Below, one piece after another: positions 823 to 48,154 of a stretch of DNA of 64,000 nt (within the stretch, counting starts at the first letter, position 1; every line of letters starts with the position of its first letter). The DNA comes from Eledone cirrhosa (taxonomy: Eukaryota). Under the pieces are notes generated by a model. The model did no database searches. It was not told the DNA's origin and saw only the letters and a program-made list of their open reading frames with translations. The stretch lies in NCBI GenBank assembly GCA_964016885.1, contig OZ024745.1, forward strand, positions 24,366,001 through 24,430,000. The letters are read 5' to 3'. The translations under genes and the position numbers were made by a program.

Positions 823-1018
823 GGAACAAGTAAGACCCCGACGGCTGAGCTCAAGCCGTTTCGACGGCTAATTCTGTACAGTACAGAATTAGCCGTCGAA
901 ACGGCTTGAGCTCAGCCGTCGAGGACTTACTTGTTCCTATTACCCACTCTACTACCCTAAGTATTGAGTACTTTGGTGCGTTATGGTCCACCTGGTTCCT
1001 TACCACATTTCCTTCGTT
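823..1018. mobile_element. Fold-back element family B with half-hammerhead
   Basis: Palindrome 823-937 (apex 880) plus extension, flanked by (TA)n. Contains GAAACGGCU-ugagcuc-AGCCGUC. Homologous copies at 3756-3946, 17094-17293, 23241-23380, 47556-47611, 47966-48154 and 49656-49681. Confidence 0.8.
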
Positions 1019-1082
1019 ATATATATATATATATATATATATATATATATATATATATATATATATATATATATATATATAT

Positions 1083-1545
1083 ATATTGTTATACTTTGGG
1101 AGGGTCATGTTGCCAATAAGAAACACACGCACCAGTTGCTTTCACTTCAATTTATTATATATTTATAAATTTACAAATTTATAAATTTCTGGTTGGTTGG
1201 CTGGTTCCACAACCAGATAGTTGTTTATATATAGTCATAGTCCTTTCGTCACACACTCTGTGACCTCTTCAGTGACTGGGGATTCCTTTCTTTGTTTCTG
1301 TGCCTCTCCTTTGTTCTGTCCTACGCCATTTTGTTTCTGTGTGTGTGTTGTGTGCTCAGTTTGCGCATGCTCCACATCCGGGTGTCTGTGTGTGTTTATG
1401 TTCGTTTATCTATTTGTTTATTTATTTATTTATTTATTTATTTACATGTTATTGGTTGGTTGTTTGTTCTATGTGTGTGTGTGTTTTCATTTTGTCCTTA
1501 ATTTCAGATAAAGAATCTTGCTAAACAAATTCAGAAACGAAATAT
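1083..1545 (-). mobile_element. 5'-truncated copy of the Penelope-like element (pLTR/3' region plus inverted tail)
   Basis: Reverse-complement near-identity to about 13716-14128. The inverted tail 1501-1545 matches 13040-13082. Flanked by (TA)n. Confidence 0.85.
1233..1277 (-). ncRNA. Minimal hammerhead ribozyme of the PLE pLTR
   Basis: Identical motif to 13930-13974. Confidence 0.75.
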
Positions 1546-1569
1546 ATATATATATATATTTATATATAT

Positions 1570-3520
1570 ATTTAGAAACACACAGATACATGCGGACACA
1601 CACATATATACATGAATGCATCCGCACCCAACTGTGAGTTAAGGGTGCCAACTTCACCGATGTTGCTCAATGAATGACTGGGACAGACCAATTCAGTTTG
1701 AACCAGACTGAACCAGTATCAGAGTTAAAAATACATTATGAAGAGAGAAGAAACATTTAGATATAATTAGTAATAAAATGTATCATACCTAAACTGCTCC
1801 TAAATTCCTCGACTACGTAGTTTCGTGGCATAAACAAAAACAATATATCAAAGATATAGAGTCCTTGCGAGGTCTGCCAACTTATCAAGAGGATACCTCA
1901 TTTTACTAGTCTCAAGAACGCGTCTACACGACGTGAGAAAGAATCCCAAAAGGCGGAGGGGGAGATAGTCACGCGATATAACGGTCGAGAAACAGAGCTA
2001 AGCCTCTTATAACCACGAAGAAAATACCACGGAGGCGGAGGGGGTATTCATATCGAGGCCGCAGAAGAGGTAGTGAAGAAGGCGAGAAGTATGAGTAATG
2101 GAAGCTTTCCAGTTGTCCCCACACTTCAAAGATTGCTCGACCAGAGGGAGTTATTAATATATTTAGAAACACACAGATACATGCGGACACACACATATAT
2201 ACATGAATGCATCCGCACCCAACTGTGAGTTAAGGGTGCCAACTTCACCGATGTTGCTCAATGAATGACTGGGACAGACCAATTCAGTTTGAACCAGACT
2301 GAACCAGTATCAGAGTTAAAAATACATTATGAAGAGAGAAGAAACATTTAGATATAATTAGTAATAAAATGTATCATACCTAAACTGCTCCTAAATTCCT
2401 CGACTACGTAGTTTCGTGGCATAAACAAAAACAATATATCAAAGATATAGAGTCCTTGCGAGGTCTGCCAACTTATCAAGAGGATACCTCATTTTACTAG
2501 TCTCAAGAACGCGTCTACACGACGTGAGAAAGAATCCCAAAAGGCGGAGGGGGAGATAGTCACGCGATATAACGGTCGAGAAACAGAGCTAAGCCTCTTA
2601 TAACCACGAAGAAAATACCACGGAGGCGGAGGGGGTATTCATATCGAGGCCGCAGAAGAGGTAGTGAAGAAGGCGAGAAGTATGAGTAATGGAAGCTTTC
2701 CAGTTGTCCCCACACTTCAAAGATTGCTCGACCAGAGGGAGTTATTAATATATTTAGAAACACACAGATACATGCGGACACACACATATATACATGAATG
2801 CATCCGCACCCAACTGTGAGTTAAGGGTGCCAACTTCACCGATGTTGCTCAATGAATGACTGGAGCAGTTTAGGTATGATACATTTTATTACTAATTATA
2901 TCTAAATGTTTCTTCTCTCTTCATAATGTATTTTTAACTCTGATACTGGTTCAGTCTGGTTCAAACTGAATTGGTCTGTCCCAGTCATTCATTGAGCAAC
3001 ATCGGTGAAGTTGGCACCCTTAACTCACAGTTGGGTGCGGATGCATTCATGTATATATGTGTGTGTCCGCATGTATCTGTGTGTTTCTAAATATATTAAT
3101 AACTCCCTCTGGTCGAGCAATCTTTGAAGTGTGGGGACAACTGGAAAGCTTCCATTACTCATACTTCTCGCCTTCTTCACTACCTCTTCTGCGGCCTCGA
3201 TATGAATACCCCCTCCGCCTCCGTGGTATTTTCTTCGTGGTTATAAGAGGCTTAGCTCTGTTTCTCGACCGTTATATCGCGTGACTATCTCCCCCTCCGC
3301 CTTTTGGGATTCTTTCTCACGTCGTGTAGACGCGTTCTTGAGACTAGTAAAATGAGGTATCCTCTTGATAAGTTGGCAGACCTCGCAAGGACTCTATATC
3401 TTTGATATATTGTTTTTGTTTATGCCACGAAACTACGTAGTCGAGGAATTTAGGAGCAGTTTAGGTATGATACATTTTATTACTAATTATATCTAAATGT
3501 TTCTTCTCTCTTCATAATGT
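1570..3520. mobile_element. 591-bp tandem plus inverted HHR-containing repeat (retrozyme/pLTR-like)
   Basis: Apparently identical units start at 1570, 2161 and 2752 (partial, to about 2862), followed by an inverted 591+~68 bp arm at 2862-3520. Flanked by (TA)n. Confidence 0.9.
3360..3447 (+). ncRNA. Type I hammerhead ribozyme, U3-A8 variant with long loop II
   Basis: UCCUC-UUGAUAA-GU(U)GGCA...UGCCAC-GAAA-CUACGUAG-UC-GAGGA. Stem III is the perfect palindrome ACUACGUAGU, with GUC at 3440-3442. Identical copies at 1806-1893 (-) and 2397-2484 (-). Confidence 0.75.
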
Positions 3521-3755
3521 ATATTTATATATATATATATATTAATATGTTATATATATATATGTGTGTATGTGTGTGTGTGTTTACATATACATATATA
3601 TATATATGTATATATATGTATATGTTTATATATATATATGCATACGTATATATGTATATGTGTGTGTATATATATATATATATATATACTAATAAAAGTA
3701 TGGTTTTGATTCTGTGTTTGTCTTGTCATTTGGTGAACTATATATAAACATATAT

Positions 3756-3946
3756 AACGAAGGAATTGTGGTAAGGAACCAGGTGGACCATAACGCACCA
3801 GAGTACTCAATACTTAGTGTAGTAGAGTGGGTAATAGGAAAAAGTATGACTCCGACGGCAGAGCTCAAGCCGTTTCGACGGCTATTTCTGGTCCAGAAAT
3901 AGCCGTCGAAACGGCTTGAGCTCTGCCGTCGGGGTCATACTTTTTC
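3756..3946. mobile_element. Fold-back element family B copy
   Basis: Homologous to 823-1018 in opposite orientation. Apex TTTCTG-GTC-CAGAAA. Confidence 0.8.
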
Positions 3947-4319
3947 ATATAAACATATATATATATACATATGTTTGTGTGTGAGTGTGCCGTTATTGAG
4001 AGTTGAGAGTTGTAGTCAATGAGTTGTATGATCTCTTATGGGTTCATATGAGAAGTGAAGAGGCCATTGGGCTGACTCTATTGTCGCACTATACACCGGC
4101 TGGCGTCTGGGAAGTTGAGAGTAGGAGAAGCAGGAGGAGAAGGGGGAGAAGAAGAAGACATACCAATTGGTTTATACTTCAACTTACCACTATTGCGTAG
4201 TGTACCTAAGGAAATATGTTTTGTTGTTATTGTTATTGTTGTTGTGTTCGGTGTTGATGTCTAACTACATGGAAATCAGTCTTCAAATATAGTTCAATTA
4301 AATCAGCCGTCTTACATTA

Positions 4320-46852: not shown

Positions 46853-47275
46853 TTGAAAATATTGTAGGTTAAGATAAATATCAGAAAACAATAAAACACT
46901 AAAAGGAAAACAGAGTCATGATATAATAAAACAATGAAATAAAAAATCAAATCATTAGAGATATACTTCACTGCTTTACGATCGTTTCTAGATGATGATA
47001 ATACATTGTAGCTATACTCGGTTATTGATCTATGTAAGGTTAGTTACAAACTATCAAATAAAGAGAATATTTACTTACATGCATATCACCAGCTGTTTTC
47101 AAAACAGCTGGTGATATGCATGTAAGTAAATATTCTCTCTATCTGATATTTTGTAACTAACCTTACATAGATCAATAACGGAGTATAGCTACAACGTATT
47201 ATCATCATCTAGAAACGATCGTAAAGCAGTGAAGTATATCTCTAAAGACTTGATTTTTTATTTCATTGTTTTAAC
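46853..47275. mobile_element. Fold-back element with half-hammerhead GAAACGAUCGUA
   Basis: About 175-bp arms, apex at 47100, one-sided extension. Confidence 0.8.
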
Positions 47276-47294
47276 ATATATATATATATATATT

Positions 47295-47540
47295 GAGTAT
47301 ATATTGGTTGTTTACCGACACCTCAGTATGCAGATTAGAGCACTCGACGAAGTACGCAGGCTGGTTTGTTGACTCCGGAGTAATGTAAAATAATTAAGTC
47401 AAATAGGTAAAATTTGGCTTCGTTTATTATAAATTATAGATATACTGCTATATATATTTCGGTGACAGCCATCATTGGCTGTGACGTCTTCAACTACCTG
47501 AAGACGTCACAGCCAATGATGGCTGTCACCGAAATATATA
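47295..47540. mobile_element. Family D element with inverted HHR pair
   Basis: HHR motifs at 47445-47492 (-) and 47498-47540 (+, CUGAAGA core, truncated after stem III). Homologous to 29812-30020. Confidence 0.75.
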
Positions 47541-47638
47541 GTTCAGAAATATATAGTCCAGAAATAGCCGTCGAAGCGGCTTGACCTCTGGCGTCGGAGT
47601 CATACTTTCTCATATATATATATATGAGAGGGTATGGA

Positions 47639-47891
47639 TTTAAATATTCACCTGTTCTTTTGCCGTTTCCGACGGTTTCACTAATCAAAAGATTTGAAAT
47701 TCAGAGAATTTCCAATGGAAAGAATTAGATTTTCAGACGGCTATTTCCATATTATAAGGGTATAAAGCCTCATAGTAAGTTAATATTTCACTTCCTGCCC
47801 GTTGCATGCGGTCAAGCCGTTAAAGTGACTCGCAAATCTTTTGATTAGTGAAACCGTCGGTAACGGCAATAGAACAGGTGAATATTTAAAT
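47639..47891. mobile_element. Fold-back element with HHR-shaped 3' half (GAAACCGUCGGUA)
   Basis: About 58-bp inverted arms. Stem I GCCGU/ACGGC is present but the core is non-canonical. Confidence 0.55.
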
Positions 47892-47965
47892 CGGTTATTA
47901 ATTTATTTAAAAGATTGTTTGATGATTACTTGTTCCGCTCATTTTATATATATATATATATATAT

Positions 47966-48154
47966 GAAAAGGTTCAGGACCCCGACGGCAGAGCTTAAGC
48001 CGTCTCGACAGCTATTTCTGGACTAGAAATAGCTGTCGAAACGGCTTAAGCTCTGCCGTCCTTAACCTTTTCCTATTACCCACTCTACTACCCAAAGGAT
48101 CGAGTACTATGGTGCGTTATGGTCCACCTGGTTCCTTACCACACTTCCTTTGTT
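47966..48154. mobile_element. Fold-back element family B copy
   Basis: Homologous to 823-1018. Confidence 0.8.

Follow-up and report, generated by a model that had tools for sequence, protein, structure and literature searches.

Penelope-like elements (PLEs) leave behind an insertion unit in which two arms stand head to head across a palindromic joint and only one arm carries a tail (PMC8557442, PMC3846280). The published reading of this unit invokes self-priming on an antisense template, with resolution by the element's endonuclease (EN) to account for the tail (PMC3846280). Both the origin of the inverted arms with their one-sided tail and the cutting of PLE hammerhead ribozymes in vivo are called open in the available text of PMC8557442, PMC3846280 and PMC11167929. 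Here we describe a 64,000-nucleotide stretch of the Eledone cirrhosa genome (the window; assembly GCA_964016885.1, contig OZ024745.1, positions 24,366,001 to 24,430,000, forward strand), in which five short hairpins of a PLE family display the same head-to-head arms, one-sided tail and palindromic joint. Based on these and on their relatives across the genome, we propose a model, which we hold to be probable, in which the hairpins are head-to-head, 5'-truncated PLE pieces that result from two-ended priming at fixed sites, run-off of each complementary DNA (cDNA) at an RNA 5' end formed by a likely capped start or, less often, by the predicted ribozyme cut, and joining of the two products.

A preliminary description of the window, made from the letters alone, had reported five palindromes whose apex sequence differs per copy. 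All five lie where it placed them, each in a (TA)n tract (Table 1; the right end of the fourth is approximate, ~23380), and their apices read as quoted there. Its list of copies was incomplete, a sixth arm and a short fragment having been overlooked, and the textbook hammerhead 3' half that it saw throughout is present as GAAA, stem III and GUC in at least one arm per copy without being intact in every arm: the tail arm at 23241 has no stem III and the tail-less arm at 47966 reads GAGA. Copy 2 is in reverse orientation and position 3756 is its tail end. The same hairpins abound elsewhere. Exact short hairpins number at least 18,114 in 3.0 Gb (reversed control, 0), too many to be due to chance, a 26-mer spanning stem III has 42,297 exact genome copies, and 36 arms in a 750-kb random sample correspond to ~48 arms per Mb.

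The two arms of a hairpin have different, fixed 3' ends. Taking the G of GAAA as position 0, site 1 ends in CCTAT or CATAT at about +41, and site 2 ends in CGTTAT ~80 nt further. Arms were surveyed in a sample of 171 that was not selected on upstream sequence, 45 of them taken from the window and 75 randomly chosen 10-kb stretches, the other 126 from around the first listed places of the stem III 26-mer, with a bias to young copies. Every hairpin having a tail arm paired it with a site-1 arm (56/56), and the longer arm was the tail arm in 25, the tail-less arm in 21 and neither in 10; the geometry of a fold-back fits 6 of these 56 joints. Among 28 site-1 arms without a short partner, 11 face a partner whose start lies downstream of the cut site, so that nothing of the arm's upstream part recurs in it, a figure reached after removal of 6 of 17 flagged rows that matched TA repeats. 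Clear mixed-subfamily hairpins also occur (L079, L280 and L278, among 105 rows). Long arms form 28 head-to-head against 3 tail-to-tail pairs among the first 100 places, and inverted arms as a whole form a continuum from 0.1 to 5 kb.

Longer copies of the hairpin family extend upstream and disclose the parent element. Locus L094 holds a 3.0-kb unit, enclosed by inverted arms, in the order tail, 5' region, open reading frame (ORF), 3' untranslated region, hammerhead region and site 1. The ~80-nt tail is the beginning of the element's 5' region and continues into the ORF in full-length copies. The parent copies read are interrupted by stops and frameshifts. The frames of L094 carry RWR (a conservative change from RWK) and DKT, a reverse transcriptase (RT) motif YRDDG followed by an IY...YIG domain (also in L095), a CxCX5C linker in the form CNCPDRSLC, and CNLC..E..N..CKH (L094, L095 and L096), that is, CxxC/CxH around E and N. 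Protein relatives number 312 at E<=0.001, and the 120 listed are mostly 580-760 aa long. Pfam returned nothing significant for four parent fragments, and the domain names used here, RT and GIY-YIG-type, rest on motifs and relatives. Insertion into (TA)n, a Hydra-clade trait, holds for all window copies; ATATAT follows 39 site-1 and 59 site-2 ends among the ends parsed, and any other hexamer occurs at most twice. The insertion unit of EN-bearing PLEs is recognizable as well, with pseudo-long terminal repeats (pLTRs) in partial tandem, an inverted 5'-truncated copy and a one-sided tail. The canonical CUGANGA hammerhead of the clade is replaced by a core reading UUGANAA or CUGAGAA; that hammerhead is a feature of the Hydra clade, not its basis, according to Craig et al. 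(PMC8557442). By motifs that match the clade definition in that paper, the parent is a Hydra-clade Penelope-like retrotransposon, and judged by sequence the element is a new family of this clade, whose core variant and insertion shape are both already known.

In the parents the hammerhead region consists of stem I, a UUGANAA core, G10.1, a 6-10-bp stem II with a 33-36-nt loop, GAAA, a near-palindromic stem III and GUC, and the predicted cut falls between +22 and +23. N7 of the core is T, G, A or C while U3 and A8 stay fixed, which rules out a register with N7 deleted. The preliminary description had the apex lie inside stem II and erase a CUGANGA half. The 5' half is indeed absent from the hairpins, but its parental form is UUGANAA or CUGAGAA, 55-57 nt upstream and not CUGANGA at 12-20 nt, and in the parents the apex maps to the 3' end of loop II. 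The search for non-folded parents proposed there did find them with an intact 5' half (5,917 exact 5'-strand matches), though not with the core expected: the genome has 13 instances of CTGANGA no more than 30 nt upstream, none of them a parent. The three stems, 3-8 pair, GAAA and NUH of a type I hammerhead are present in U3-A8 subfamilies, and the 3-8 pair is broken in CUGAGAA subfamilies (C3-A8), to which most copies of two young subfamilies belong. Unconstrained folding yielded a three-way junction for TTGAGAAG and TTGATAAG parents and not for the others of nine folded subfamilies; 90.5% of alignment cells pair, and three stem II pairs show two-sided changes. No hammerhead appears in the best 150 of 268 Rfam matches. 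A C3-A8 mismatch impairs hammerhead cleavage. The sole backing found for this consists of the C3G and G8C tests in PMC11167929, and no paper on a hammerhead G8A change was found. Older subfamilies, at L301, L302 and L325 and among the rows of a core search, hold U3-G8 cores and a few C3-G8 cores (CTGAGGAG, in 3 of the first 100 rows of that search), from which it appears that the 3-8 pair has passed through several states across subfamilies. In addition, parents at L153:1417, L174 and L303 are missing all or part of loop II between short repeats and retain a compact stem II, and a GAGCTC hexamer in loop III, kept across subfamilies, could serve as a kissing or dimer site.

Arm ends pile up upstream of GAAA. 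In the sample, 131 of 171 end between -11 and -24, 54 of them at -17 to -19, none at -36 to -55 and 19 beyond, some ends at -21 to -24 being inflated by chance likeness to the partner arm; genome-wide, at least 314 loci have both arms reaching -18. The A at -18 sits in a TYAGTY motif that is kept across subfamilies although the rest of loop II differs, and that we take to resemble the initiator consensus. Promoters inside the pLTR are published for PLEs (PMC3846280). In a hand tally of the first 50 of the 314 double -18 loci, the single-base joints are C in 20, G in 11, A in 2 and T in none, so that a non-parental G precedes the A in 31 of 33; of the 10 three-base joints, 7 read C-N-G, with an extra G on both arms. 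G stands at -19 in 0 of 87 long arms, and in L1 an extra G is the mark of a copied cap (PMC11702581). These joints point to a likely capped RNA start at -18, within loop II.

A second pile-up lies at the predicted GUC cut. Eight of 41 rows whose tail arm ends downstream of GAAA end at +22/+23, some of them deletions, against at most three at any other position. Hairpins with a downstream apex number 1,031 genome-wide. Both arms end at +23 in 18 clear and 4 ambiguous cases among the first 50, with one arm there in 5, a turn inside the stem III palindrome in 21 (e.g. L327, L330, L334, L339) and another arrangement in 2; the eight double +23 loci viewed all combine a single tail with a single site-1 end and are flanked by TA. 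For subfamily C there are 130 loci; both arms stop at +23 in 43 of the first 50, with joints that are blunt in 20, carry A/T in 14 and other inserts in 9. Single added bases are A/T in 14 cases and G in 1, so that the added base at +23 differs from that at -18 (P=4e-9). A natural contrast is provided by subfamilies B and C, which have stem III in common and are similarly abundant (14,220 and 13,944 arms). Cut-site loci number 55 in B (32 of the first 50 clear) and 130 in C (P=1e-8), a B/C ratio of 0.42 that becomes 0.31 (~35 vs ~112) once parent-continued joints are removed, i.e. 2.4-3-fold rarer in B. The first 100 B-type cores comprise 31 U3-A8 and 69 C3-A8, and all seven subfamily C cores read are U3-A8. 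The joints at the predicted cut suggest that the ribozyme likely cuts in living cells. A pattern search for tail arms breaking at +23 returned mostly point mutants and a five-C variant and served as a lead only. Subfamily A (L044-L073), with a C3-A8 core and near-identical copies, shows 39 long vs 2 short arms in a search-biased set and none in the 171-arm sample, and may seldom make short hairpins; the notion that active-core subfamilies yield more short copies was unsupported (B, 26 short and 4 long; C and D, 25 and 9).

How might such joints come about? We envisage that the pLTR likely fires capped RNA at -18 and that the ribonucleoprotein likely cuts both strands of a (TA)n target, one end priming at site 1 and the other at site 2. 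Internal priming of this kind has a counterpart in vitro, where the PLE called PAc primes at two internal RNA sites (PMC11167929). Where priming takes place in the 5' copy of the pLTR, or on short RNAs made by solo 3' pLTRs, of which there are thousands, the two cDNAs would each reach the template's end at -18, yielding hairpins; priming in the downstream copy would give long inverted pairs, and priming on ribozyme-cut RNA would stop the cDNA at +23. In the course of end joining the joint would be trimmed and patched. Since long arms are found opposite long arms and partners mostly come from one subfamily, a single RNA molecule, or a co-bound twin of it, probably serves both primings; the few mixed hairpins suggest that two RNA molecules are used at times. 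With an RNA that starts in loop II, the capped 5' copy would be a half-ribozyme and only the downstream copy whole, the DNA would record both RNA ends (the cap G at -18 and the uncapped GUC end), and the C3-A8 mutant subfamily would reveal the in vivo need for the 3-8 pair; on this more specific proposal our judgement is evenly balanced.

Self-priming is the chief competitor. The preliminary description inferred that nascent cDNA snaps back on hammerhead stem II and primes the second arm, the ribozyme fold doubling as the fold-back primer. Arms of one subfamily, a real and covarying stem II helix and an apex near that stem speak for it, but the chimera that it predicts, in which an entire loop II adjoins the inverted 3' strand, has 0 occurrences in the 3.0-Gb genome against 5,917 parental 5' strands and 18,114 hairpins, a refutation that holds for the subfamilies covered by the junction pattern, and 0 of 19 arms at risk end at -36 to -55, the site of the 5' strand. 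We consider snap-back on stem II extremely improbable. Its corollary, that the dead copies might be cleaved in trans, is plausible for single-stranded short RNA and unlikely for hairpin transcripts, because these would presumably fold back as duplex. The published hypothesis for head-to-head PLE palindromes (PMC3846280) is self-priming wherever microhomology happens to occur, either on sense cDNA or on an antisense template, with one arm cut back to site 1 by the endonuclease; the tail is there ascribed to EN-mediated resolution. This hypothesis accommodates same-subfamily arms and the few joints of fold-back geometry. However, no tail is present in a cDNA primed from site 1, and a tail arm shorter than its partner could then arise by self-priming only through a subsequent deletion; any form of self-priming needs the tail arm to be the longer one, so the nearly symmetric arm lengths count against it. 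So do the loci where both arms reach -18, in some cases each with an extra G, the 11 insertions with non-overlapping arms and the mixed hairpins, and an antisense template leaves the extra G of the sense strand unexplained. This form of self-priming appears unlikely to us.

A further alternative retains priming from two ends and explains the stops by RT stalling at RNA structure or by later trimming of the hairpin, with no cap and no cut. Two bases separate position +23 from the foot of stem III, most copies with an ORF continue beyond -18, and the 21 hairpins that turn within the stem III palindrome indicate that structure shapes joints. Yet the added base is site-specific, ends fall at +23 and not +22 (1 single-G joint and 0 GC joints in 50), position -18 lies in an unpaired or weakly paired loop, and the B/C ratio of 0.31 speaks against a stall at the shared stem III, because such a stall predicts a ratio near 1; we give this alternative, too, little credence. 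A DNA transposon resembling a miniature inverted-repeat transposable element would likewise be short, palindromic, very abundant and flanked by TA, but the apex differs at nearly every copy, the two ends are unlike each other where terminal inverted repeats and a constant interior would be fixed, the arms form a size continuum, and the sequence is the pLTR and ORF start of an RT element, whose non-folded parents bear out the preliminary assignment to a retroelement hammerhead. A target site duplication is unreadable within (TA)n. We regard such a transposon as practically dismissed.

Several observations weigh against two-ended priming with cap and cut run-off. The largest young subfamilies (A and most of B) have the C3-A8 mismatch and amplified nonetheless, which means that cleavage is not needed for amplification, and cut-site hairpins make up only ~1% of arms, so on these sequence counts cleavage is occasional and not required. 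Among ORF-bearing copies reaching GAAA, 18 of 20 continue past -18 and 2 stop (27 of 30 loci parsed); it follows that templates do not all end at -18, or that RT often jumps there, or that there are read-through RNAs, and the model needs one of these. The TATA-like box at -30 is lacking in the older subfamily, and the RNA ends proposed here are deduced from DNA joints. Most hairpins pair same-subfamily arms, as self-priming also predicts, and rare variants shared between arms (1/106, null mean 0.57) do not separate the models. Covariation is confined to 3 of 22 pairs in related sequences and lends modest support to the fold. The tallies were counted manually over the first 50-100 places, taken as they follow along the genome, and the agreement of the 0.31 ratio with the B core counts assumes that core shares in long arms equal those in the source RNAs.

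The window contains other features (Table 1). The sixth arm adjoins a hairpin of a different hammerhead family, and long hairpins of unrelated sequence, several of them TA-flanked on one side, possibly reflect the same two-ended process in other families. Copy 4 belongs to a subfamily that includes parents with the TTGATAAG core.

Table 1. Hairpin arms of the Eledone family and other features of the window (positions within the 64,000 nt).
Positions	Strand	Feature
820..879	-	Copy 1, tail-less (site-1) arm: ~-17 via GAAA, stem III, GUC and stem I 3' strand to CCTAT end in (TA)n
880..1020	+	Copy 1, tail (site-2) arm: GAAA 898-901, predicted cut after 920, site 1 at 940
941-1020	+	Copy 1, tail, 80 nt, ends CGTTAT in (TA)n
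3754..3950	-	Copy 2: tail arm on minus (3754-3891) joined to site-1 arm on plus (to 3950)
17090..17295	+	Copy 3, older subfamily: site-1 arm (minus) and tail arm (plus); non-parental bases at joint
23237..23380	+	Copy 4: site-1 arm (minus, from -11) and tail arm with internal deletion of stem III and stem I
47962..48156	+	Copy 5: longer arm is the site-1 arm (minus), reaching -19; predicted start A at 48024 (minus); tail arm from -13
47554..47615	+	Sixth arm: lone site-1 arm from -19
49655..49683	+	Short piece of site-1 arm, stem III end to site 1
47450-47540		Hairpin of other hammerhead family: canonical CTGAAGA core, long stem II, GAAA; apex just upstream of core
13236-13718	+	GIY-YIG fragment (Pfam PF01541, E=6e-5), CxxxxCxxC linker upstream; end of another PLE clade
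56210-56806	-	Mariner transposase remnant (HTH_48)
51925-52551	-	209-aa frame, by eye the restriction-like endonuclease end of a non-LTR element; no Pfam match
1726-3527		Perfect 666-nt inverted arms around a tandem 591-nt duplication; not of the Hydra-clade hairpin family
470-600, 15748-15956, 46921-47279, 57837-58373, 59331-59761		Long hairpins of unrelated sequence

What would an RNA start in loop II, with both RNA ends recorded in DNA, mean for PLEs in general? If that more specific proposal is correct, every inverted PLE insertion with a one-sided tail would be two cDNAs of one RNA, and the distal 5' half of the ribozyme could cut the capped half in cis or in trans. The family is a very large source of perfect hairpins in the E. 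cirrhosa genome, and its independent joints, in the tens of thousands, count against self-priming and in favour of two-ended priming. They also provide indirect evidence, with a mutant control built in, of cleavage in vivo, and they name the exact constructs and RNA ends for testing. We found no paper with cap-marked or cut-site-marked PLE joints, and likewise none with a loop II start or a natural-mutant contrast, in a search that left most subscription journals outside.

By-eye comparison shows that the parent protein resembles Hydra-1_Obim (Craig et al. 2021, PMC8557442), with which the element has in common a length of ~3 kb, a single ORF, RW(K/R), DKT, the CxCX5C linker, a C-terminal GIY-YIG-type domain with CxxC/CxH around E and N, a (TA)n target and a hammerhead near the 3' end. 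In Hydra-1_Obim the hammerhead core is the canonical CUGAAGA, loop II measures 8 nt and stem III is short; in the Eledone family the core reads UUGANAA or CUGAGAA, loop II measures 33-36 nt and contains an initiator-like motif, and stem III has 5-6 bp. The Eledone hammerhead would escape the core descriptor of PMC8557442 (spacer 7-17 nt), and the tail of this family, ~80 nt, compares with 30-40 in the elements described there. The minimal Cercyon PLE hammerheads of Schistosoma (Cervera and de la Pena 2014, PMC4209133) likewise have a covariant U3-A8 core, G10.1-C11.1 and a palindromic loop III and occur as pairs on opposite strands; they lack a stable helix III and are thought to work as dimers, unlike the Eledone hammerhead, for which a monomer fold with a long loop II is predicted. 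PAc, the Poseidon element of Anolis carolinensis (Frangieh et al. 2024, PMC11167929), acts on both strands of AT-rich DNA, which it cuts and extends; its tail lies between two internal RNA start sites, and hammerhead cleavage is unnecessary for its insertion, in all of which the Eledone family appears alike. That study found no RNA-seq reads ending at the hammerhead cut and, in its available text, does not explain inverted arms, whereas in the Eledone family DNA joints pile up at the predicted cut and at the likely capped start. Twin priming of L1 (PMC11702581) shares with our proposal a second reverse transcription on the other DNA end, the extra-G cap mark and end joining at the inversion. 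In L1 the second priming takes place at a variable internal site and the pieces barely overlap, while the Eledone hairpins have two fixed sites and hold two copies of one and the same 60-nt stretch. Unlike the published reading of the PLE unit, the Eledone counts favour two separately primed cDNAs copied from a sense template.

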